DNA from: Candidatus Hadarchaeota archaeon
GTDB taxonomy: Archaea > CAYQAE01 > CAYVLA01
Direction: 5' to 3'
NCBI GenBank assembly: GCA_964621445.1
Contig: CAZUNO010000047.1
Span: 1-12,143 of the forward strand
DNA: 12,143 bases
Part shown: positions 237-12,143 of the stretch, one piece after another
How the letters are laid out: each line of letters opens with the position of its first letter
Position numbering within the stretch: position 1 is the first letter of the stretch
The notes under the pieces: generated by a model
Seen by the model: the letters and a program-made list of their open reading frames with translations, nothing else
The model's database searches: none
What the model was told of the DNA's origin: nothing
Program-made: the position numbers and the translations under genes

Positions 237-266
237 AGTGTCAAGAAAGCGTTGAGGAATCTGGCC

Positions 267-1679
267 ATGAGCAATTCACAGCCAAACATACTTGTCCTAT
301 TAACCGAACAGCATCGAGGTGACTCCCTTTCGTGTGAGAGGCATCCGGTCTTGCTCACCCCGACCATGGACCGCATAGCGGGACGCGGCGTCAGGTTCTC
401 AAGGGCTTACAGTACCTGCCCTGTTTGCATACCTGCCAGGCGGTCCCTGCTCACCGGACAGTCCCCCTCAACCCACGGGGTTCTCGGCTATGGGAGAAAA
501 CCTTGGAACGAGTCATCGATAGCGGATGAGCTGTCGAAGGCCGGCTATCAGACCGCCTGGATCGGGCGGGACATGCATCAGGAACCCCCCGAAAAGAGAT
601 GCGGCTTCGAGACAACCATTCTCAGCGGAATGCGTAACCCCGGCAATCCCTATGATCAGTTCTTGAAAAACAACCAGCCCGAAGGCGGAGGAGGGTACTA
701 CGGCAGCGGCGTAATGCACAATGACTACACTGCGCGGCCCTTTCATCTCCCTGAGAATCTACACCACACCACCTGGACGGTGGGCCAGGCATTATCCTGG
801 CTCAAGGAGCGCGACAGAGGCCGTCCCTTCTTCCTGGTAGTCTCTTTCCTGGCAGCCCATCCCCCTCTGATTCCCCCTGCATGCTACTTCGACCGCTATC
901 TTCGAACCGGGGTTCCCGACCCCTTCATCGGTGACTGGGCAAGACCGCCCGAGAATGACGGCATCGGCATGGGACAGTCATCCTCAAAGGTGAATCTCAA
1001 GGAAGAGGCCCTTCTGAGCGCCCGGGCCGGGTACTATGGACTGATAAACCATCTCGACGACCAGATGAATCGCCTTCTGAACCCCGTGACGGGAATACAG
1101 AGAATGACCGACAACAACACAGCGGTCATCATGACAAGCGACCATGGTGAAATGCTGGGGGATCACTACTGCTGGGCCAAGTCGCTGCCCTACGAGGGCG
1201 CCGCCCGGATTCCGTTGCTTATCAGTGTGCCGGATAGGTTCGAAGCGAGGGCCAACAGCGTGGTTGACAGGCCGGTGGGCCTGGAGGATATCTTGCCCAC
1301 CGTTCTGGAGATTTCAGGGGTGGATATCCCGGACTACGTGGATGGTAGGAGCCTCCTGCCGCTGCTGAGAGGGGACCGTGAGGCGGCATCTAACTGGCGA
1401 AGATACATTCACATCGAGTATGCGGATCCCAGGGCATTCCACGCCCTGACCGACGGCAAGGAGAAGTATGTGTGGTTTGCCGGGGACGACCGCGAACAGC
1501 TCTTTGACCTGAAGAACGATCCGGGCGAGTGCATCAATAAGGCGGATGATCCTGATTGGGCCAAAAATGTCGGTCGGTGGCGTCGGCTGATGGTTGATGA
1601 GCTGACGGGTCGCCCTGAGGGCTTCACCGACGGAGATGAACTGATCGCCGGTCGGCCCTATCCAATGATAATGGAGTAG
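267..1679 (+). CDS. Cys-type formylglycine-dependent sulfatase (arylsulfatase/choline-sulfatase-like), 470 aa, cytoplasmic
   Basis: N-terminal PNILVLLTEQHRGD, signature CPVCIPARRSLLTG (CxPxR), PFFLVVSFLAAHPP, TSDHGEMLGDH, AKSLPYE, and C-terminal EQLFDLKNDPGE. ATG 267 is preferred over TTG 252 because of GAGGA at 254-258 and TATA spacing. No signal peptide. Confidence 0.93.
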   Translation: MSNSQPNILVLLTEQHRGDSLSCERHPVLLTPTMDRIAGRGVRFSRAYSTCPVCIPARRSLLTGQSPSTHGVLGYGRKPWNESSIADELSKAGYQTAWIGRDMHQEPPEKRCGFETTILSGMRNPGNPYDQFLKNNQPEGGGGYYGSGVMHNDYTARPFHLPENLHHTTWTVGQALSWLKERDRGRPFFLVVSFLAAHPPLIPPACYFDRYLRTGVPDPFIGDWARPPENDGIGMGQSSSKVNLKEEALLSARAGYYGLINHLDDQMNRLLNPVTGIQRMTDNNTAVIMTSDHGEMLGDHYCWAKSLPYEGAARIPLLISVPDRFEARANSVVDRPVGLEDILPTVLEISGVDIPDYVDGRSLLPLLRGDREAASNWRRYIHIEYADPRAFHALTDGKEKYVWFAGDDREQLFDLKNDPGECINKADDPDWAKNVGRWRRLMVDELTGRPEGFTDGDELIAGRPYPMIME

Positions 1680-1688
1680 ATCAAGCAA

Positions 1689-3107
1689 TTGCAACCCGAT
1701 ATCGTATGGATCTACTGTGATGAGTTGCGGACGGACGCGCTTGGCTGTTACGGCCATCCAACCATGCGGATGTACACCCCGAATATTGACCGGCTGGCCG
1801 CCAGCGGGGTGCGCTTTGCCAATGGCTTCTGCAACTCACCGGTCTGCGTCCCCTCGCGCATGTGCACTTTGACCGGCCTCCGCCCCGAGGACACCGGTGT
1901 GTACAACAATGAAGGCAGCTGGAGGAACTTCCGCATGCCATTCCGGCCGGAGACCTTTCCCCAGGTACTGGCGGCAAGCGGCTACCGGACTGCCAACTTC
2001 GGCAAGATCCATCTCGCCCGCGAAATGTTACCGGGGCCTGACTCCGATCGCACGGTATTCCAGCATCATGATCACGGGGGCGCCGAGATGGACTTCTGGT
2101 CGCATCTTGGCAATGACCGTGTGAAGATGGTGCGGTCCCCGATTGGAGGTATGAATGGCGGTGTCTACCCCGCCGGTGAGCCATACCCGCCCGATGAGGT
2201 CATGGCACGTGCGCTGCGGTGGATGAGATCTGTTGAGAGGCCTTTCCTGGTGCGTATGTCGCTCCTGCAGCCACACACACCGGTTTTGCCCCCGGAGAGT
2301 TACATACGACTCTATTCGGGCCAGGACCCGGGGCTGCCTGAGCCGTTGCCCGACACGATGTCCGAGTTTGAGAAACGCGTGGCGGATATCCATGGTCTGG
2401 ATCGCATGCCCCGGGAGAAGCTGAGGTCGGCGCGATTATCGTACTATGCGCAGGTCGCCTGGATCGATACACAGGTGGGAATAGTGCTTACCGAGCTGGA
2501 ATGCAAAGGTCGTCTTGAAGAGACCATAGTCATGTTCGGGTCCGATCACGGGAATCCCCTTGGTGACAGCGGGGCCTTTGGGAAACACACCTTTACCCCC
2601 ACCGTGCATCGGGTGCCCCTGATCATATCACTACCCGGCACGCTGCCAGAGGGAGAGGTCCGTGACGATATCTGCGAGAGCCTCGATGTTGGCCGTACAC
2701 TGCTGGGCCTCGCCGGAATCTCGGCTCCAGATCAGTTCAGGGGGCGTGATCTCTTCACGGACCCGGAGCCTGAGGCCATCTACTCGACAATAGGATTCGG
2801 GCAGCCTGACAGCAAGCTCGCCCCGAATGGGGGTATTGGGGAATGGACGGAGAACCGTGGGTGGCCGCGACGCTGTTGCATCCGAACCGGGGAGTTCAGA
2901 CTCGATATGAACGTGCTGATCGACAACCAAAGACCAGCGCCCGAAGATGAAGACGTATTCCTGGTCGATGTCAGGAAAGACCCTGGAGAGTTCACAAACC
3001 TCGCAGCCGATCCTGACTATTCAGATGTTGTTCAAGACCTGGCCGGAAAGCTCGAGAAGCACGCTGAGGGCGGTGTCGAGATCCCGTCCACATGTCTTGT
3101 ACGATGA
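1689..3107 (+). CDS. Cys-type sulfatase, 472 aa, cytoplasmic
   Basis: PDIVWIYCDELR, CNSPVCVPSRMCTLTG, GYRTANFGKIH, PFLVRMSLLQPHTP, GSDHG, and DPGEFTNLAADPDY. TTG start is uncertain. The gene is in the same frame as the upstream sulfatase and separated from it only by TAG plus 3 codons. Confidence 0.92.
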   Translation: MQPDIVWIYCDELRTDALGCYGHPTMRMYTPNIDRLAASGVRFANGFCNSPVCVPSRMCTLTGLRPEDTGVYNNEGSWRNFRMPFRPETFPQVLAASGYRTANFGKIHLAREMLPGPDSDRTVFQHHDHGGAEMDFWSHLGNDRVKMVRSPIGGMNGGVYPAGEPYPPDEVMARALRWMRSVERPFLVRMSLLQPHTPVLPPESYIRLYSGQDPGLPEPLPDTMSEFEKRVADIHGLDRMPREKLRSARLSYYAQVAWIDTQVGIVLTELECKGRLEETIVMFGSDHGNPLGDSGAFGKHTFTPTVHRVPLIISLPGTLPEGEVRDDICESLDVGRTLLGLAGISAPDQFRGRDLFTDPEPEAIYSTIGFGQPDSKLAPNGGIGEWTENRGWPRRCCIRTGEFRLDMNVLIDNQRPAPEDEDVFLVDVRKDPGEFTNLAADPDYSDVVQDLAGKLEKHAEGGVEIPSTCLVR

Positions 3108-3131
3108 ATGTTTCAGGTCCGAGAGACAGAT

Positions 3132-3138
3132 AGGAGGT
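3132..3138 (+). promoter_or_regulatory. Shine-Dalgarno sequence for the GH99-like gene
   Basis: AGGAGGT lies 6 nt upstream of the in-frame GTG at 3145. Confidence 0.8.
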
Positions 3139-3144
3139 ATAACG

Positions 3145-4251
3145 GTGGGACACTATGACGTCGCTGCTTTCATCTGGCCTGCCTTCCACCACGATCCCCG
3201 CATGGAGGACATCTGGACGGAGGGTGACGGCGAGTGGATGACCGTTCGCAACGCCAAACCCCGCTTCGATGGACACAATCAACCCAGGGTTCCCCTGTTT
3301 GGTTACCAGGATGAAGCCGATCCAGGTGTGATGAGGCAGCATGCTGAGCTCGCCCTCGAGCACGGGGTGAACGTGTTCATAATGGACTGGTACTGGTACG
3401 AGGATTCCCCGTTCCTCGAAAGGCAGCTCAACGAGGGCTTGATGCCCGGGATCAAGGGAACCGGTATGAAGTTCTATCTGATGTGGGCAAACCACGATGC
3501 AGGCCTGACCTGGGACCCGATCACCGATGACACGGATATCTTCTGGAGGGAAGCAGTTGACAGGGCGACATTCGAAAGGATCGCCCGGAGATGGATAGAG
3601 AGGTACTTCTCGCATGACAACTATTACAAGATAGACGGTTGTCCCGTTCTTTGCCTGTACGACCTTCCAGCATTTGTGGATGGTATTGGCGGGACAGGCG
3701 AGGCGAAGAGGGCACTGGCCTGGTTTCGAGCTGAGGTGAAGGAGGCAGGTTATCCGGACCTCCATCTGCAAAACACCTACATGGGCCATATACCGATGGA
3801 TATCCTGTCCAGTTGCCCCGATCTTGAGATCGGACCCTCCGGGGCGGTCAATGCAATTGGCTTTGACAGCGTGACCCGCTACCAGTGGGTACATGTTGCG
3901 GGAGCGCAGGACCGGGAGTACTCGGAGTGGGGGGAGATCGGTGTGGATGACTGGGATATAATGCTGAAGCGGTTCGGCAGTGTTGTTCCACACGTCTCGG
4001 TCGGTTGGGACAACAACCCCAGGTTCACGACATACAGACAGATAGTCAGGGATGAGTCACCAGAGCTATTCGAAGGATTTCTGAGAAGGGCAAAGGGATT
4101 CCTCGACACGCATCCCGAGCAGCACAGACTGGTGACATTGAACTCATGGAATGAGTGGACCGAGGGTTCGTATCTACTGCCGGACGAGAGATCTGGATAT
4201 GGCTTTCTCGAGGCAGTCAAGGCTGTATTTGGAGGCTCTAGTGACATCTGA
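3145..4251 (+). CDS. Glycoside hydrolase family 99-like (WbsX-like) domain protein, 368 aa, cytoplasmic
   Basis: VAAFIWPAFH, GEWMTVRNAKPRFDGHNQPRVPLFGY, HGVNVFIMDWYWY, FYLMWANHD, NYYKIDGCPV, VGWDNNPR and NSWNEWTEGSYLLPD are typical of the WbsX/GH99-like family. The start is moved from 2947 (which overlaps sulfatase 2) to GTG 3145 with a perfect SD. Confidence 0.88.
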   Translation: MGHYDVAAFIWPAFHHDPRMEDIWTEGDGEWMTVRNAKPRFDGHNQPRVPLFGYQDEADPGVMRQHAELALEHGVNVFIMDWYWYEDSPFLERQLNEGLMPGIKGTGMKFYLMWANHDAGLTWDPITDDTDIFWREAVDRATFERIARRWIERYFSHDNYYKIDGCPVLCLYDLPAFVDGIGGTGEAKRALAWFRAEVKEAGYPDLHLQNTYMGHIPMDILSSCPDLEIGPSGAVNAIGFDSVTRYQWVHVAGAQDREYSEWGEIGVDDWDIMLKRFGSVVPHVSVGWDNNPRFTTYRQIVRDESPELFEGFLRRAKGFLDTHPEQHRLVTLNSWNEWTEGSYLLPDERSGYGFLEAVKAVFGGSSDI

Positions 4252-4522
4252 ACGGGCGACCTGGGGCGTCCGGGCCTCAGGATGGACCCTTGGTCTATCG
4301 GGTGCCGAATAGATTAGTGGGCTTGGAGAATACCTTGCAGGTCCAAGGACAAAAGCCCGAGGTAATGGATGGCTATATCTTTGGAGATCTGCCTACCTGG
4401 GGCACAGGCTTTAGGCATGCCACCAGTTCCATAGAAAGCCCGGGGCATGTTTCAAGATAATCAGGATCTCTCTTCAGTTCCCGGGCTGTGGTCGAAACGA
4501 GGAATGTAAGTGGGGGAATCCG

Positions 4523-5779
4523 TTACTCGGTTCTCTGCCCACGGAAGCTTGTCGATGCGACCTCCCGGTAGAGCCTCTGCCGTATCATTAATGACCAGAC
4601 AATGAAACCTGCCAGAATCGACGTGGCGCTGACTATCAGCCACTGGGCCAGGTAGATCCAGACCAGGGCACGGTCCTTTCTCTCAATGGCGAGGGCATTG
4701 AGTTCCTCTAAATCCTGTATGAACTGGCTGTAGGCCGACCGGGCCTGTTCATACTCCTGCCTCAGGTACATCTCGTCTGCCTCTCCTTTCGAGTCCATCA
4801 CATCATCCATGCCCTCGAATATTGGCGCCATGTTTGCGCCGAAACCCTCCGCGAACTCGATGGTCCCTAGCAGCAGCGAGGTTCGGGTATTGAACCCTGT
4901 GATCTTTGACCTGATGTCGTGTATTATCTCCACGTCATCGGGCAGCTGCCTCCCAGTGCTGTACAGTATCATATTCATTATTATGTCAAAGCCGTATGGA
5001 TTCGCCATCGGATCCTGCCACCACCACTCCGTCAGCGAATCATGTGTGGTCCAGGTAATGCCTTCTCCATACTGCCATGAGATGATCTGAGGGGTGCACC
5101 CTGGCTTCTGGTTTGCCCGATCGGCGAATGGCCCCTTGATCCAGGACCAAACAACGGCCCCCGGGCGTGGGATCAGTAGGGCACAGCGGTAGCCCGAGAG
5201 GTACCATGGCACATCCTTGCCTTTGAACATGGTGAGAACCGGCGGGAGTCCGGTTCCTTCCTCCAGGATTATGCGGCCGTCCCTGGGATAGCGAGACCAT
5301 CCCGCGCCGATGGTCAGCAGCGCCTCGACATCGTTCGGGAACGCCCTCTGGGTTGCGGAGTCCGCCCAGTCCTGGAAATATTGCGTGCTGAGGAGGGATC
5401 TCGAATTCATACCTCCGGTGCCTTCCAACACGGCATCATGCATCCATCTCTGCTGGAGGGGGCTGAACATGCCCATCTGGGTTCCCTCGAAAAGCATGAA
5501 ATCCTGGATCTGTACCCCTTCATAGCTGCGCGGGAAGTAGATCCTCACGAACTTCTTGATCTGGGGATCTCCTCCAGGCACGGACCGACTGGGAACGAAG
5601 AGGGGCGATATCATGGGCTCGCCCATGAACCAAGAACTTATGAGGCGTGTATCGTCCACCCTGCCGGTCAGAAGGGCCCCGATCTTGTCCGTTTTCTCGT
5701 GAAGGCCTTTACACGGCACCAGGAATAACCCCAGCATGACCAGGAGGATCGCCGAGAGATATCGTGGCCTGATGATCAA
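4523..5779 (-). CDS. Membrane-anchored hypothetical protein (paralogue A), 418 aa: signal peptide, globular domain, helical stalk, C-terminal TM helix
   Basis: N-terminal MIIRPRYLSAILLVMLGLFLVP and C-terminal hydrophobic WIYLAQWLIVSATSILAGFIVWSLM followed by basic RQRLYR. It has clear full-length similarity to 9168-10430. TTG start. Confidence 0.88.
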   Translation of the reverse strand: MIIRPRYLSAILLVMLGLFLVPCKGLHEKTDKIGALLTGRVDDTRLISSWFMGEPMISPLFVPSRSVPGGDPQIKKFVRIYFPRSYEGVQIQDFMLFEGTQMGMFSPLQQRWMHDAVLEGTGGMNSRSLLSTQYFQDWADSATQRAFPNDVEALLTIGAGWSRYPRDGRIILEEGTGLPPVLTMFKGKDVPWYLSGYRCALLIPRPGAVVWSWIKGPFADRANQKPGCTPQIISWQYGEGITWTTHDSLTEWWWQDPMANPYGFDIIMNMILYSTGRQLPDDVEIIHDIRSKITGFNTRTSLLLGTIEFAEGFGANMAPIFEGMDDVMDSKGEADEMYLRQEYEQARSAYSQFIQDLEELNALAIERKDRALVWIYLAQWLIVSATSILAGFIVWSLMIRQRLYREVASTSFRGQRTE

Positions 5780-5802
5780 CGCATTCAGCGCACCGTGGCG
5801 GG

Positions 5803-5808
5803 TTTAAA
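5803..5808 (-). promoter_or_regulatory. Putative TATA box for a near-leaderless transcript of paralogue A
   Basis: TTTAAA lies 24-29 nt upstream of TTG 5779, and no SD is visible before the start. Confidence 0.55.
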
Positions 5809-5865
5809 TGTATTGCCGTAGCCAGAGCAGCTGTCTCGGCATCTCAGGGACGATTCCCCACAGGG

Positions 5866-7287
5866 CTACGAATGTGAGAATGAATGGTGCAGTTGGACAT
5901 TGTCGTCGGTTCGGCTCTGCCAGTCCCGGATCCTTTCAAGGAGGTCCGACATCAGACCTTCATATCTCCCAGATTGGGCAAGATTGTTGATCTCCATGGG
6001 ATCATCCTCCAGGTTGTACAGCTCATGCCTCCCTATGGTTGAGTAGGTGAACCTCCAGCCATCTGGTGTAAGAATCGTCCGGGTGGGGTCTGTCAACGCA
6101 TCTGCAGCCCGATCAGGCGCTTTTCGGCCTTTTCGTATATTCCACTCTATTATCGCGCCCTCATTAGTTACCTCCCCGCCATCGATTATAGGATTCAGGG
6201 TCTCCCCCTGGAGGTGTTTGGGGATCTCCTCGCCCATGATGTCGAGGATCGTGGGAAGCAGATCGATATGGCTAACGGGTTCGTGGACGGTGATTGGTTC
6301 CTTCTCTCCAGGTGTCCTGATGATGAGCGGGACCCTGATAGCCTCCTTGTACATCACCCCCTTCTGTAGCAGTCGATGGCTGCCCAGCATGTCCCCGTGG
6401 TCGGCCGTGTAGACGATCACCGTCTCGTCATACAGGTCGCATTCCCGTAGGGTCTCGAGAATTGTTCCCACATGGGTGTCAACCTGGCTGCACAGCCCCC
6501 AGTAGTTGGAGACAAGCTTTCTCCATTCCTCCTCGTCCTGGAGGTTCCAGGAACGGTATCCCTTCTCGTAGAAGGACCGGTAGCGGTGAAGTGCCTTGGG
6601 GTGCTGGTCCTCGGTTGGAGGATGGTGGAAATTCTCCGGCAGCTCTATTTCATTGGGATCATACTGCCCGTCCCTTGGACCGTGGTAGGGCGGATGGGGT
6701 TCATGGAATCCGACGAAGAGAACGAAGGGCCGCCTCCGGTTCTCCCGGATGAACCTCGAGGCCTCGCGAGCGAGGTATGCAGTCTTCGAGAATTCCTCCG
6801 GTATTTTAGTGCAGGCAAGGTTGTCAAAGGTGTTGTCCTCACCCGGCTGGAAGCCGTTCTTGACGAGAAAGTTGTAGTAGGTTGAGCGGTCCCCGCGGTC
6901 ACGTCCGGGACGATAGTGTTTGTGGTAGTCATCCTGTATGCTTCTCCACTCATCGAACCCGTGCTGACGGAAGACCTCATCCCCTAGATGCCATTTACCA
7001 TAGTACCCGGTTACGTACCTGTGTTCAGGCAACATCTCCGGAAGACAGGGCACGTTCAGCGGGAGTACGGTGTTGTCGGCTGTGCACCCAGTTGAATGAG
7101 GATAGAGTCCTGTGAGAAGGGAGGAGCGCGAAGCTGTGCAGACCGGTTGTGTCACGCAGGTTTGCTCAAACACTACCCCTTCCGAGGCAAGCCTATTCAG
7201 GTTCGGCATCTGGATACGGGAGTTACCATACGCGGCCATGGTATCGGTTCTCTGCTGATCAGTAAATATGAATAGAAGATTCGACAT
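5866..7287 (-). CDS. Cys-type sulfatase, 473 aa, cytoplasmic
   Basis: C-terminal part of the 879-aa track ORF. It starts MSNLLFIFTDQQRTD at ATG 7287 and contains QPVCTASRSSLLTG (CxAxR), GYYGKWHLG, PFVLFVGFHEPHPP, TADHGDMLGSH, LQKG and ELYNLEDDPMEINNLA. Confidence 0.93.
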   Translation of the reverse strand: MSNLLFIFTDQQRTDTMAAYGNSRIQMPNLNRLASEGVVFEQTCVTQPVCTASRSSLLTGLYPHSTGCTADNTVLPLNVPCLPEMLPEHRYVTGYYGKWHLGDEVFRQHGFDEWRSIQDDYHKHYRPGRDRGDRSTYYNFLVKNGFQPGEDNTFDNLACTKIPEEFSKTAYLAREASRFIRENRRRPFVLFVGFHEPHPPYHGPRDGQYDPNEIELPENFHHPPTEDQHPKALHRYRSFYEKGYRSWNLQDEEEWRKLVSNYWGLCSQVDTHVGTILETLRECDLYDETVIVYTADHGDMLGSHRLLQKGVMYKEAIRVPLIIRTPGEKEPITVHEPVSHIDLLPTILDIMGEEIPKHLQGETLNPIIDGGEVTNEGAIIEWNIRKGRKAPDRAADALTDPTRTILTPDGWRFTYSTIGRHELYNLEDDPMEINNLAQSGRYEGLMSDLLERIRDWQSRTDDNVQLHHSFSHS

Positions 7288-7308
7288 GGTGTCGGTTCTC
7301 TGAGGATC
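7237..7308. repeat. 24-bp imperfect direct repeat (21/24 identical), 48-bp period
   Basis: CATGGTATCGGTTCTCTGCTGATC (7237-7260) versus CATGGTGTCGGTTCTCTGAGGATC (7285-7308). On the minus strand these read DQQRTDTM and DPQRTDTM. Confidence 0.85.
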
Positions 7309-7647
7309 GATCCCCTTATGTGTTGTTTCCAAATGAATACCCAACCCCCAGTCAACCATGCAAACGGAGGACGGCCAAAACCCGGCTTCTCGTCCCAGGG
7401 TCTGCATGTCTTGAAATTTGATGGCAAATAACGGAAACATGTGTTGCTCGCAGCATCTGGTCCCAATATGCGCATTAAGCAACCCTGGCCGAGGTTCGTT
7501 ACCTGTCGTATCCGCCTCGTGGAGGTATGGGGGTGGAGAAATAGACAGGGGCCGGTTGAAAGCAGGCAGACAAGTAGTAAACCTTCGTTGATATTCGAAA
7601 CCCTTTTTCAGTCTCGAGCGAGTATTAAAGGCATGAAGGGCTAAATC

Positions 7648-9140
7648 ATGACCCCAAGCCCGACCGCACTTCCCGGGTACTCGCCCCACGGAGACCCCGC
7701 GAGAAACCTCAACACACGCGGGCCAGAGATATTGGCGGTATGCGCGTGCCTCCTGTTGAGCCCGGTGCTCGGTGTCCCCTCCTTTGATAGCGACGAGAGG
7801 ATCGTGGGAACCTACTACTTCTACTGGTACGACTGGAATTCGAGCCTTCACTTCTTCGTCGGGGCCGAGGACGCCCTGACCAATCACCCGCCCGAAATCG
7901 AATGGGTGAGCTACCTGAGCGAGGAGTGGCATAAGGGGGAGCTTCTGGATATGATGGATGCCGGGATCGACTTCCTCCTGCCGGTGTACTGGGGCGATTC
8001 GTACGCGTTGCCCTGGTCGGGCATAGGGGTAGAGAGGTTGGTCGATGCCGAGGAGCAGATTATAGCTCGAGGCATGCGGCCTCCGAAGATAGGGATGTTC
8101 TACGACACCACATCGCTGATGCTCGAGCACAGGTACCGTGGCATGCCCGGCGAAAGGCCTAACCTGAGCACCGAGTACGGAAAGGACCTGTTCTACTCGA
8201 TGATACGAGACTTCTATCGTCGCATCCCGGAAGCGCTCTGGGCGAGGCTGGATTCGGCGGCTGTGGTGTGGCTCTACTCCTCGGCATGGGTCTCGGACTA
8301 TGATCAGAGCCTGGTCGAGTATACGCGGCGGAGGTTCCGGGAGGATTTCAACTCGAGCGTGTTCATTGTCCGTGAGAGGTCGTGGAGTCTGGACACGGAT
8401 ATGAAGTACGGCTGGGGGGCCGCACTTGGTCCGTCGCTCCTGGATGTGACGGCGATAGGTCCAGGCTTCGATAACGAGGGGGCGGTGAGATGTTACGGTC
8501 AGCAACCGCTTGAGCGAGATCGGCTCGATGGATACAGCTACAGGGATGATTGGGAAGAGGCGCTGCGGGCGGCCTCAAACATAATCGTGATCGAAACGTG
8601 GAATGAGCTTCACGAGGGGACCGAGATATGTGAGACGGTTGAGCTGGGCCGGAAGTACATAGAGATCACGGCCGAGTACGCCCGCGCCTTCAAGGAGGGT
8701 TCGTGGGAAAACCTTAAGGAGATCGATTCTGAGGTTTCCCTGGATCCGATGAGGCTGCAGGGCGGGTCTGCGGAAACCATGGCCATTAACATAACCGTGA
8801 TGAATCGCGGTTGGAGAAGCTGGCCCGAGTACCTGGACCTCGTTTCCTCTTCCTGGGCATCGACTCCTCGGGAAGGACCAGCCGCACCGTTCACCTCGAC
8901 TTCCCGCACCGCCTCTCGACAGATGAGGGACACTCGGAGATCGCTCACCTAGGGCTACCGGGCGTCGAGGGGGAATACAGGGCGTTGGTCTCGACAAGCT
9001 ACCTGGACAGACAGCTGGAGATGACCGCGGTCGTCCCCGAGACCTCCGCGCTCCCAGCCCTCATTCTGCTCGGGGCATTGATTGCCAAATCGAACTCAGT
9101 CACTGGCCTAGTACCTGCGGCCTGCATGCAAATAGTGTAA
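7648..9140 (+). pseudogene. Secreted DUF5010-like (GH99/GH71-like) protein with Ig-like domain and VPE-TM C-terminal anchor; apparent 1-nt frameshift near 8841 (pseudogene or sequence error), about 497 aa when rejoined
   Basis: Hydrophobic ILAVCACLLLSPVLG, then VGTYYFYWY, ELLDMMDAGIDFLLPVYWG, PPKIGMFYDT, GPGFD and IETWNELHEGT. ORF 7648-8952 degenerates into low-complexity sequence after WPEYLDL, while the -1 frame (8811-9140) continues FLFLG...LDFPHRL...LGLPGVEGEYRALVS...VVPETSALPALILLGALIAK. The start codon is uncertain. Confidence 0.75.
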
Positions 9141-10430: not shown

Positions 10431-10499
10431 TCACCTGGCCCTCGGTCCATCCCGCCTCGAATGTTTGGCTGATGTGCGGATGTCCAAAAAATAGCTTTC

Positions 10500-10513
10500 G
10501 TATCTGTTTAGCT
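10500..10513 (+). repeat. IS66 left terminal inverted repeat
   Basis: GTATCTGTTTAGCT, 13/14 match to the reverse complement of 12129-12142. Confidence 0.88.
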
Positions 10514-10547
10514 CTGGTTGAGTTTTGGTTTTGGTCCGGGTTTTTAT

Positions 10548-10562
10548 CGAAAGATTTAAATA
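10548..10562 (+). promoter_or_regulatory. BRE plus TATA box of the IS promoter
   Basis: Purine-rich CGAAAGA is followed immediately by TTTAAATA (10555-10562), 25-32 nt upstream of ATG 10587. Confidence 0.7.
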
Positions 10563-10566
10563 TATA

Positions 10567-10585
10567 GTATAAACATTGTTTATAC
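10567..10585. promoter_or_regulatory. Perfect palindrome, putative operator
   Basis: GTATAAACA-T-TGTTTATAC: perfect 9-bp arms with a 1-nt spacer, located between the TATA box and ATG 10587. Confidence 0.65.
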
Positions 10586-10586
10586 C

Positions 10587-10748
10587 ATGTCGAGTGTGGT
10601 CACTTCCAAGACGATAAAGGTCTCTATCTCTGAAGAGGTAGAGGAAGTCCTCAAGAAGAGCATCGTGCCCATTGGGAATGGAGGCCACGTTATCTGTCCC
10701 AAGGAACATATTGGGAAGACGGTGTACCTCGTGGTGTGCAAGGAATGA
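10587..10748 (+). CDS. DUF2080-family transposase-associated small protein (AbrB-like), 53 aa; absent from the ORF track
   Basis: Hand translation gives MSSVVTSKTIKVSISEEVEEVLKKSIVPIGNGGHVICPKEHIGKTVYLVVCKE*. The K.IVPIGNGGHV.CPKEHIGKTVYLVV pattern is characteristic of DUF2080. Its stop overlaps the transposase start (ATGA, 10745-10748). Confidence 0.85.
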   Translation: MSSVVTSKTIKVSISEEVEEVLKKSIVPIGNGGHVICPKEHIGKTVYLVVCKE

Positions 10749-12134
10749 GCTCCCAGACCCAGGGATCTGTACAGTTCCCTGGGTGCTGCTCGACCTGTCC
10801 CCGGGTAGCGAGTCTCGAGGACAGGGTGGAGGAGTTAGAGGCTGAGAACCGGGAGTTGAGAGAGAGGCTTTGTGTGGAGGGGAAGAGGTACCGGAGGCTG
10901 TGGAACAGGTATAGGAGGTACAGGAACCCTCACACTCCTCCGAGCAAGAGGCTGGGATCGAACAGGACCCGGTCGTCGAAGCCGAGGACCGGGCAGGGGA
11001 GTCCTGGGCGGAAGAAAGGCCACAAGGGGACTACCAGGCCTCGGCCCAAGCCTGACGAGACGGTGACGGTTACCGAAGAGGTGTGTTCTGGCTGTGGAGC
11101 TAGGCTCGGGGAGCCGGGTGAGACGGAGACCCGGGTTATAGAGGACATCCCCGAGCCAGGCCCGGTGAGAGCCACCGAGTACAGGATCGGTCACTACCCG
11201 GTGCCCGGGCTGCGGGGAGGAGACGGTAGCCACGCACCCCGACCTCCCACCGGAGGGGAGGTTGGGCTACAACGCGGTGGTGCAGACCACTCTCTACAAG
11301 TACCACGCGAGATCAGTGCACAGGAAGACCAGGGACCCCCTCGGCGCACTGGACGGGCTCCAACTGTCCAGCGGCACGGTGTTCGATCTTACCAGGAGAG
11401 CCAGTGACTGGCTCCGCCCTCACTACATGGAGGTTGTTCAAAAGATAAGGGATGCCGACGTGCTGTACGCAGACGAGACAGGTATGAAAGTGGATGGAGA
11501 GAAGGGATGGATCTGGACCTTCAACTGTGACCAGGCCACGCTGTTCGTGATGAGGATGAGCAGAGGTAGAAAAGTCCTGGACCAGGTTCTGGGCGACGAG
11601 TTCCAGGGAAAGATGGTGGTGGACGGGTGGAGATCCTACCCAGCATACACCAAGAACCTGCAAAGATGCTGGGCCCACCTGTTAAGAGAAGCAGACGACC
11701 TAGAGGCCACCGGGAGCAGTGAGGAAGGGAGAGAGATCGCCCAGGAACTACACCACATATACAACCAGCTCAACACCTTTATCCAGGGAAACCCTCCACC
11801 GAGGGACAGGGAGGCCAAAAAACAGTGGGCGATGTGGATGATGAGGAATCTGATAGAGAAGGAGTACAGCGACCAGAAGGTGGTGAAACTAGTGGGGAAG
11901 ATCAGGAACGGCCTCCACCACTGGTTCACATTCATCACCGACCCTGACCTCGAACCAACAAACAACCGCGCTGAACGAGCTCTCAGAGAACACGTCGTGC
12001 AACGAAAAATAATCGGAACCCTCAGAAACCAGAAAGGCATGCAGATCCACGAAACCATAACCACCATGCTAGCCACATGGAACCAGAAAGGACTAGACCC
12101 ACACCAACAAATGCACAAAACAATACGAAGCTAA
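10745..12134 (+). pseudogene. IS66-family DDE transposase (TnpC-like), about 462 aa when rejoined, interrupted by a 1-nt insertion at the C run 11197-11199
   Basis: Frame A has a coiled coil (LEDRVEELEAENRELRERL), NPHTPPSK, GRKKGHKG, CSGCG and IEDIPEP..EYRIGHY. Skipping one C gives RCPGCGEETVATHPDLPPEGRLGYN, which completes the Zn finger and joins frame B (ADETG, VDGW, QRCWAHLLRE, PTNNRAERALR). The stop TAA lies inside the right inverted repeat. Confidence 0.88.
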
Positions 12135-12142
12135 ACACATAC
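12129..12142 (-). repeat. IS66 right terminal inverted repeat
   Basis: AGCTAAACACATAC, the reverse complement of the left end with one mismatch. Confidence 0.88.
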
Positions 12143-12143
12143 T

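Follow-up and report, generated by a model that had tools for sequence, protein, structure and literature searches.

What does a protein annotated solely as 'transposase-associated' do for the mobile elements that carry it? The question is raised here by the DUF2080 gene of an IS66-family insertion sequence (IS) in a 12,143-nucleotide stretch of DNA from Candidatus Hadarchaeota archaeon (CAZUNO010000047.1), hereafter the window, which makes up all of contig C47 in a 3.2-Mb archaeal metagenome-assembled genome (MAG) and whose last 1.6 kb the IS fills. Our answer, to which we give a probability of roughly 70%, is that DUF2080 represses the IS promoter, and with it its own gene, by binding there in a sequence-specific manner. 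The evidence that carries this reading is comparative: a two-unit site recurs at the same place ahead of DUF2080 genes, and its outer bases covary with two residues in a loop of the protein.

A first-pass annotation, made from the letters of the window, had described a transcription factor B recognition element (BRE) and TATA box at 10548-10562, a palindrome, a near-leaderless ATG, a 53-residue open reading frame (ORF) and an ATGA overlap with a transposase gene, and all of these are present as it described them (Table 1). The identity of the ORF as DUF2080 is likewise borne out by PF09853 (E 1.2e-11, 44.6 bits, cut-off 21.5) and NF033496 (45.3 bits, cut-off 22). The palindrome reads GTATAAACA-T-TGTTTATAC and is perfect, all four of its half-sites begin GT, and an independent inverted-repeat scan also found it. 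Its quality was matched in 2 of 200 dinucleotide shuffles of positions -45 to +8 of the window locus, and the operator pattern, with up to three mismatches allowed, occurs once in the window and in none of 200 shuffles. At up to two to three mismatches the palindrome has no other occurrence in the window or the assembly, bar one unrelated symmetric word, and a pattern search of both yielded no further operator site within the IS, its right end included. The symmetric word, GTATTAAC-N3-GTTAATAC at C8:92603-92621, carries two mirror-image changes from the operator; it may be chance, and a reversed-pattern control yielded as many matches.

The recurrence of this design was examined in two sets of DUF2080 loci. 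Set 1 was drawn from the window's own genome (3 loci), from 40 relatives (5 of 41 genomes matched, the window's own included) and from a source holding one genome per species, in which 142 of 161 pattern matches were confirmed and the best 80 kept. A hidden Markov model of 12 family members gave 92 ORFs in these loci, and 76 non-redundant loci were left once L017, L045, L078, L094, L096, L097 and L098 (no usable start or upstream DNA), two window copies and seven duplicates had been dropped. Set 2 came from metagenome contigs of the Joint Genome Institute (JGI), where 503 of at least 600 stretches matching a pattern were confirmed and the best 80 kept; removal of 17 duplicates, 2 loci with short upstream regions and 1 without a start left 60 new loci. 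The site score of a locus was that of its best 18-20-mer between -45 and +8 around the start, judged by the outer eight symmetric pairs.

At least seven of the eight pairs were symmetric in 68 of the 76 set 1 loci, and all eight in 36. These scores were reached far less often in dinucleotide shuffles of set 1 (17% and 1.0%), in control regions upstream of other ORFs of the same loci (27/241 and 3/241) and in AT-rich control upstream regions (10/65 and 0/65). In set 2, 47 of 60 loci had at least seven pairs and 30 were perfect. Both sets together thus hold two 8-bp units between TATA box and start codon in 115 of 136 loci, 66 of them perfect.

The geometry of the site is similarly constrained. 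The units lie 10-11 bp apart with a separation of three, sometimes two, nucleotides, and the start codon follows immediately, the site ending one base before it in 44 of the 115 cases. A TATA-like 8-mer begins 12 nucleotides before the site, the modal distance, in 30 of 63 sites, these being the ones with a usable TATA-like 8-mer among the 68 with at least seven pairs. The motif CGAAAGA next to the TATA box, which we take to be a BRE from the archaeal promoter consensus, is echoed by CGAAA at the same place in 25 of 76 loci of set 1 and 11 of 60 of set 2. In most loci each unit is itself palindromic (GTATATAC, GGATATCC, AGATATCT or ATATATAT), and the two units form direct repeats one helical turn apart. 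Within the clade of the window (the window, L022, L019 and L130) the units GTATAAAC and GTTTATAC are constant while the spacers att, aa, aaa and taa vary, so that the ninth pair is not conserved. The 9-1-9 palindrome of the first-pass annotation is therefore perfect in the window, but the arms conserved among relatives are 8 bp long and flank a free spacer of 2-3 bp.

If the site is read by DUF2080, its letters might be expected to follow the protein, and they do. The outer two bases of a unit track the two residues after a near-invariant glycine in the loop G-x1-x2-A-K/H-V; in the window, G30-N31-G32 (within I-G-N-G-G-H-V) carries both predicted specificity residues. Among sites with at least seven pairs, to which all counts of the code are restricted, the outer bases in set 1 are GT in 14 of 15 loci with loop NG, GG in 12 of 15 with NS, AT in 14 of 15 with TG, and AG in 21 of 23 with TS. 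Taken residue by residue, N at x1 goes with G in 27 of 30 and T with A in 36 of 38, the remaining five being ambiguous and none contrary; G at x2 goes with T in 28 of 30 (two ambiguous) and S with G in 34 of 38 (three with another base, one ambiguous). Each residue tracks one base, and the four classes therefore amount to a two-by-two code.

The rule was fixed on set 1 and then applied unchanged to the independent set 2, where it was matched in 7 of 13 sites for NG, 12 of 15 for NS and 17 of 19 for TG, with no TS locus among the sites with at least seven pairs. The exceptions are five ambiguous sites and one TA for NG, two mixed GG/GT sites for NS and two TA register shifts for TG; several of those for NG appear by eye to be register slips of a crude picker in AT-rich DNA. 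Register slips aside, no site of set 2 carries the dinucleotide of another class. Over both sets the code is matched by 97 of 115 sites, whereas 10,000 shuffles of the class labels, a test that ignores relatedness, reach at most 42. At the level of half-sites the expected dinucleotide is found in 72 of 112 (GT, loop NG), 93 of 120 (GG, NS), 125 of 136 (AT, TG) and 73 of 92 (AG, TS). The proposal of the first-pass annotation, that position-conserved palindromes covarying with the protein be sought upstream of DUF2080 homologs, has thus found what it looked for.

Does this match reflect recognition, or have gene and operator simply been inherited together? Were another factor, such as a host regulator or the transposase, to bind the site, the loop match would record the shared descent of linked DNA, an idea favored by the linkage of operator and gene and by the weakly supported phylogenetic independence on the DUF2080 tree. 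The code, however, is factorial, x1 pairing with base 1 only and x2 with base 2 only, and it was reproduced out of sample. Close relatives are also hard to reconcile with an outside binder. L051 (TS, AGATATCT twice) and L033/L038 (NS, GGATATCC twice), all from one MAG, are 88% identical outside the loop, as are L072 (NG, GTATATAC) and L074 (NS, GGATATCC), and L016 (NG) and L024 (TG) are 76% identical; within each close pair all four half-sites change in concert. The host lineages of the loci span many archaeal phyla, and across these and across differing transposase families an outside binder would need to have followed every change of DUF2080, which makes it very unlikely in our judgment.

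Two further comparisons bear on descent. A tree of IS66 transposases (451 columns) was built from 32 of the 33 loci with an IS66 DDE match, the one left out being L070, a fragment; L053, which matched the IS66 zinc-finger domain only, was not among the 33. In this tree the loop classes are interspersed, residue and base each change seven times, and 6 of 6 (p 0.031) and 5 of 5 (p 0.0625) of the independent pairs that lie on supported branches agree. Transposase families were called by Pfam on 91 ORFs, the up to two longest among 215 downstream segments. The same loop classes stand beside DDE_Tnp_1 (L014 TG, L048 TS, L082 TS, L095 NS), DDE_Tnp_IS240 (L031 NS, L054 TS), rve (L021 TG) and DUF772/DDE_Tnp_1_6 (L035 and L039, both TG), and this recurrence across five transposase families indicates that operator type follows DUF2080 and not the transposase. 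Close pairs, transposase tree and transposase families together argue for more than shared descent.

Several observations nevertheless weigh against autorepression by DUF2080. Operator and loop codons are about 110 bp apart and inherited together, so the agreement seen on the transposase tree could also stem from the swapping of whole modules. In the DUF2080 tree, which has 51 columns and is poorly resolved, supported branches carry just 3 and 1 independent pairs; these are all concordant, but a sign test on so few cannot reach 0.05. Counting all branches gives 9 and 8 independent pairs. A good site is absent from 21 of the 136 loci, and 18 of 115 sites lack the predicted dinucleotide, mostly through AT-rich register ambiguities or mixed half-sites. 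The sites upstream of the two further DUF2080 genes of the window's own genome (AGTTATCC-at-GTATAACT and GGTTATCC...) misfit a simple code. In the window copy the transposase is frame-shifted, so the switch there may control a defective gene. Finally, fold searches lend weak support to RIFT-type barrels and do not establish an AbrB-like fold, and DUF2080, judged from its residues, is nearly neutral in charge.

How, then, would the switch work? The TATA box of an archaeal promoter is centered about 26-27 nucleotides before the transcription start, and with the TATA box at 10555-10562 this geometry places the start at about 10585-10587, giving a leaderless mRNA and an operator spanning about -20 to -2; the DUF2080 gene is probably leaderless. 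Archaeal repressors that bind between TATA box and start block recruitment of the polymerase, and activators bind upstream of the BRE. It is because the site sits between TATA box and start that we infer repression rather than activation; physical binding, the oligomeric state and action in trans are further inferences. A single IS promoter would drive the leaderless DUF2080 gene and, by translational coupling, the transposase gene. DUF2080 would be a small DNA-binding protein, probably one symmetric dimer per 8-bp unit and hence two dimers per 19-bp site, whose residues x1 and x2, at the tip of a beta-hairpin (G-x1-x2), would recognize the two outermost base pairs of every half-site by the rule N to G and T to A for x1, and G to T and S to G for x2. 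Once bound, it would block polymerase recruitment or promoter opening and so lower synthesis of both DUF2080 and transposase, a negative feedback. Because the protein would be diffusible, it should reach all copies that share its operator type, and a new copy arriving in a cell without DUF2080 would presumably be expressed until the protein accumulated. The earlier proposal that DUF2080 binds the palindrome and represses is favored by covariation as to binding; as to repression, it draws on the position of the site.

Binding need not mean that regulation is the main role. DUF2080 might instead mark or occlude the left end, modulate transposase binding or serve as an architectural cofactor in transposition: the operator is just 67 bp inside the left IS end, DUF2080 is nearly always accompanied by transposases, and the accessory proteins TnpA and TnpB of bacterial IS66 elements are thought to act in transposition. 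Yet the position of the site is fixed to the TATA box and start codon rather than to the IS end, the search described above found no other site within the IS, the right end included, and the module serves five unrelated transposase families with differing ends and also stands without a nearby transposase (L036, L084 and L090), all of which leaves a main role in transposition unlikely. A role as an activator, or as an antitoxin that neutralizes a partner, seems slightly less probable than an outside binder. The available text of PMC10440598 describes a DUF2080-type protein validated as the antitoxin of a nuclease toxin, which lends this idea its appeal; the element, however, contains no toxin gene by its ORF list and Pfam, and the site lies where archaeal repressors, not activators, usually bind.

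We give the smallest probability of all to the notion that the palindrome works as nucleic-acid structure, whether as an RNA hairpin against outside read-through, as a hairpin masking the start codon or as a cruciform. Protection of the transposase gene against transcription entering from outside is common among IS elements, and the palindrome does extend to the start codon. Its predicted RNA fold, however, is no more stable than that of many shuffles (-6.8 kcal/mol, z-score -0.8, 40 of 200 shuffles as good), self-palindromic units arranged as direct repeats are what a symmetric protein needs and a hairpin does not, and the covariation of residues with bases would be left without explanation.

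A wider extension of the autorepressor reading is tempting, and we regard it as possible though somewhat short of an even chance. DUF2080 would be a minimal, programmable reader of about 50 residues with a two-residue/two-base code, carried in a cassette portable across at least five transposase families, and single-residue switches, matched by changes in the operator, would split IS elements into groups that do not cross-repress, copy number being sensed per group. If true, this would amount to an immunity system for jumping genes. Genomes with mixed classes were not enriched (8 of 11, with 0.75 expected), and with co-residence of classes no higher than expected from their frequencies, selection for orthogonality is not supported.

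The fold of DUF2080 bears on how the loop might be presented. The monomer model has a predicted local distance difference test score (pLDDT) of 84.9 and a best VIA-align Z of 2.0. A library of protein representatives holds 550 DUF2080 relatives at E<=0.001, among them natural tandem proteins of about 90-110 residues with two DUF2080 halves (P0013, P0019, P0020, P0087, P0106, P0129 and others), whose loops often differ between halves (GNG and GTG, for example). If the code is true, such proteins predict asymmetric operator units; when their loci were sought, viral contigs gave one weak locus, and 301 genomes of one phylum gave weak single-domain matches in 3. One tandem protein is modeled as a single all-beta, pseudo-symmetric barrel with internal two-fold repetition (pLDDT 90.3, predicted template modeling score 0.79), x1 and x2 lying, in either half, at the tight turn that joins strands three and four, and this model fits a dimeric DUF2080 unit. 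A homodimer prediction of DUF2080 itself scored 0.39 against a mark of 0.42, which is no verdict and is not used as evidence.

The first-pass annotation had expected a swapped-hairpin fold of the AbrB type, detectable in a predicted structure by Foldseek. Neither the monomer nor the tandem model gave a Foldseek match at E<=0.001. VIA-align of the tandem model reached a best Z of 5.7, the matches listed being six-stranded barrels of RIFT or double-psi type (ribosomal eL33 and uL3, the N-terminal barrels of V/A-ATPase subunits and FliI, Gar1, a SelB domain and aspartate decarboxylase), among them also PhS018 (2glw) with Z 4.3 over 74 aligned residues; AbrB, MazE, SpoVT and MraZ are not among the matches listed, which does not exclude them. 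PhS018 is, in the available text of PMC11258233, a RIFT barrel of high two-fold symmetry, and RIFT and double-psi barrels are there given a common GD-box and a presumed homodimeric ancestor. A Pfam scan of DUF2080 gave no AbrB (PF04014) match at E up to 1, its profile found two chance-level entries among solved-structure sequences (E 0.11 and 0.39), and the ESM Atlas returned no usable neighbor outside PF09853. Some similarity to AbrB, at the level of the motif, shows in an hhalign run against 27 PF04014 domains from related genomes (probability 34.7%, E 4.1e-4, P 4e-4, 18 columns), in which VtPfGngAkVxxPKxyi (G-x-x-x-x-V-x-x-P-K) falls on the first hairpin of AbrB/MazE; one of these domains, in L125, has a MazE-like W-G-N-S loop. 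RIFT/double-psi barrels and swapped-hairpin barrels are reportedly linked, in work attributed to Coles in 2006 and Alva in 2008. On these models DUF2080 probably belongs to the world of cradle-loop barrels with a loop resembling that of AbrB/MazE, and membership of the AbrB superfamily is unproven.

The element that carries this module spans 10500-12142 (1643 bp), makes 8-bp target duplications and is present in at least two copies in the genome. It has the inverted ends, the 8-bp duplication and the IS66-type DDE transposase that characterize IS66, and, as the first-pass annotation had noted, no TnpA or TnpB: the DUF2080 ORF alone sits between the left end and the transposase gene, which fits a single-transposase IS66 subgroup. 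The word TAGCTTTC ends the sequence left of 10500 and also starts contig C16, which continues from the right IS end. For a second copy, contigs C41 and C15 end against the same two IS termini, each flanked by TTTTGGAT, and the junction at 10500 is supported by C41 and by loose ends in public runs X1 and X2; contigs of public runs show a third left flank. In run X4, from sediment of another study, a 1634-nucleotide contig spans exactly 10500-12142 with 72 substitutions (about 95% identity), and since it begins and ends exactly at the IS ends, it represents a diverged copy of the same element, repeated in another community.

Table 1. Coordinates of the insertion sequence and its regulatory module in the window.
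Feature	Position	Strand	Remarks
Left copy of target-site duplication, TAGCTTTC	10492-10499	.	Right copy on contig C16, just past the IS end
Left terminal inverted repeat, GTATCTGTTTAGCT	10500-10513	+	Pairs with 12129-12142 at 13 of 14 bases; further flanks meet the element exactly at 10500
BRE-like CGAAAGA	10548-10554	+	Abuts the TATA box upstream
TATA box, TTTAAATA	10555-10562	+	12 nucleotides, start to start, ahead of the operator
Predicted operator, units GTATAAAC (10567-10574) and GTTTATAC (10578-10585)	10567-10585	.	Spacer ATT
DUF2080 gene, 53 residues	10587-10748	+	ATG 10587, TGA 10746-10748; one base past the operator
Transposase, N-terminal frame (coiled coil, start of IS66 zinc finger)	10745-11407	+	Frame lost near 11199
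Frame change in CCC run, zinc-finger motif	11198-11201	+	Same in X1 and X2 contigs
Transposase, second frame (CPGCGEE... and DDE_Tnp_IS66 domain)	11202-12134	+	Pfam, NCBIfam, tblastn
Right terminal inverted repeat	12129-12142	-	Inverted-repeat match and contig joins

The transposase is of IS66 type by PF03050 (E 4e-41) and NF033517 (245.5 bits, cut-off 180). Its coupling to DUF2080, as first annotated, holds at the ATGA overlap (10745-10748), where the transposase ATG at 10745-10747 overlaps the DUF2080 stop, and a downstream long ORF overlaps the DUF2080 stop in 34 of the 41 loci that have such an ORF. The gene is not one open frame, however, and the reading frame of the window copy is not intact: tblastn with the transposases of two relatives follows frame +2 as far as ...EYRIGHY (about 11199) and picks up frame +3 at CPGCGEE (11202). 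Contigs of X1 and X2 read the same, which speaks against a mistake confined to the present assembly; the change may be a defect or a programmed shift. In the X4 copy three single-base gaps near 11118-11197 sum to 3, so that its transposase frame may or may not be open. The last 240 bp or so of the transposase gene (11900-12143) are A- and C-rich on the coding strand, with a GC skew of -0.26 and an AT skew of +0.44. Upstream of the IS, the interval 252-8505 contains a cluster of three sulfatase genes, one with an N-terminal extension of about 400 residues, and a WbsX-type glycosyltransferase gene.

Some of the other loci deserve mention in their own right. The further DUF2080 genes of the same genome, L011 (C46:12480-12626) and L012 (C58:962-1108), are of the HGNSARVGVPKKW type and class NS, and both are divergent from fragmented ORFs that resemble a transposase by sequence only. 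On a 2157-bp Hadarchaeum contig, L022, NG and NS modules lie on opposite strands, as do TS and NS modules at L048; such pairing on one short contig suggests nested or adjacent insertions. Short contigs with a DUF2080 gene also turn up in bacterial MAGs, namely L037, L046, L086 and L088, which have an archaeal-type promoter module and were kept, and the excluded L043, L073 and L079 (duplicates of L042, L070 and L076) and L097 and L098 (no usable start). The bins concerned are Aminicenantia, Nitrospira, Kosmotogaceae, Pirellulales, Nealsonbacteria, Bacteroidales, Ignavibacteriaceae, Kapaibacterium and Minisyncoccia. L079, L073 and L043 are identical to contigs of archaeal MAGs, and these bacterial contigs likely reflect mis-binning, or else transfer between domains.

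In the searchable full-text literature we found no binding site and no role in IS control for DUF2080, although supplements might hold more. In the parts of that literature available to us, 'transposase-associated protein' is mentioned in passing only and is absent from an archaeal IS survey, and CalpT is reported to have weak homology to DUF2080, a similarity that yielded no usable structure link. What the analysis adds is a first, likely function for DUF2080, an exact predicted operator and a two-residue/two-base rule. The presence of one small regulatory cassette on IS elements of several families across many archaeal phyla bears on how transposition is restrained in archaea. The same cassette may offer a very small, retargetable DNA-binding scaffold, with predicted non-cross-reacting repressor/operator pairs for archaeal genetics, and could help with the annotation of promoters and leaderless starts in uncultured archaea.

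Our findings can be set beside several known systems. The element resembles what we take to be the single-transposase IS66 subgroup (ISBst12-like or ISH10-like) in its zinc-finger DDE transposase, 8-bp duplication, GTA...-type ends and lack of TnpA/TnpB, and differs in the DUF2080 cassette and the frame change in the transposase. MDR1, Phr, LrpA and the TrmB family repress archaeal promoters from sites downstream of the TATA box, and the DUF2080 operator similarly overlaps the stretch between about -20 and the start in which polymerase is recruited and DNA opens; those proteins, however, are host regulators of winged-helix or Lrp type and 15-40 kDa, whereas DUF2080 is a 6-kDa protein on a mobile element. 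With AbrB, MazE and SpoVT (PF04014, of which MraZ is the tandem form) DUF2080 shares a short, beta-rich chain, the hairpin motif G-N-S...V..P(K), probable dimers, natural tandem fusions and symmetric or repeated sites in its own promoter, which would imply autoregulation. It departs from them in its models, where a shorter helix follows PK and the last strand appears to be replaced by an additional hairpin at the N-terminus, and in its nearest solved folds, which are RIFT-type barrels (Z 4-5.7).

By analogy only, the loop classes recall the immunity groups of temperate phages, in which related repressors differ by few residues and operators change to match, which yields groups that do not cross-react; here the elements are insertion sequences, and the co-residence of classes is at chance level. 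The IS-encoded autorepressor is itself an already known kind. In IS1 and IS2 the small first gene encodes InsA, a DNA-binding repressor that binds at its own promoter near the left end, reduces expression of the transposase and can also act in trans on other copies. In the window too, repressor gene and operator would lie inside the element, at the promoter driving the transposase, in the order left end, BRE/TATA, operator, DUF2080 and overlapping transposase. Unlike InsA, DUF2080 belongs to a different family and has no helix-turn-helix; its promoter is an archaeal BRE/TATA promoter, with the site between TATA box and leaderless start and apart from the terminal repeat; and its cassette serves at least five transposase families with at least four specificity classes.

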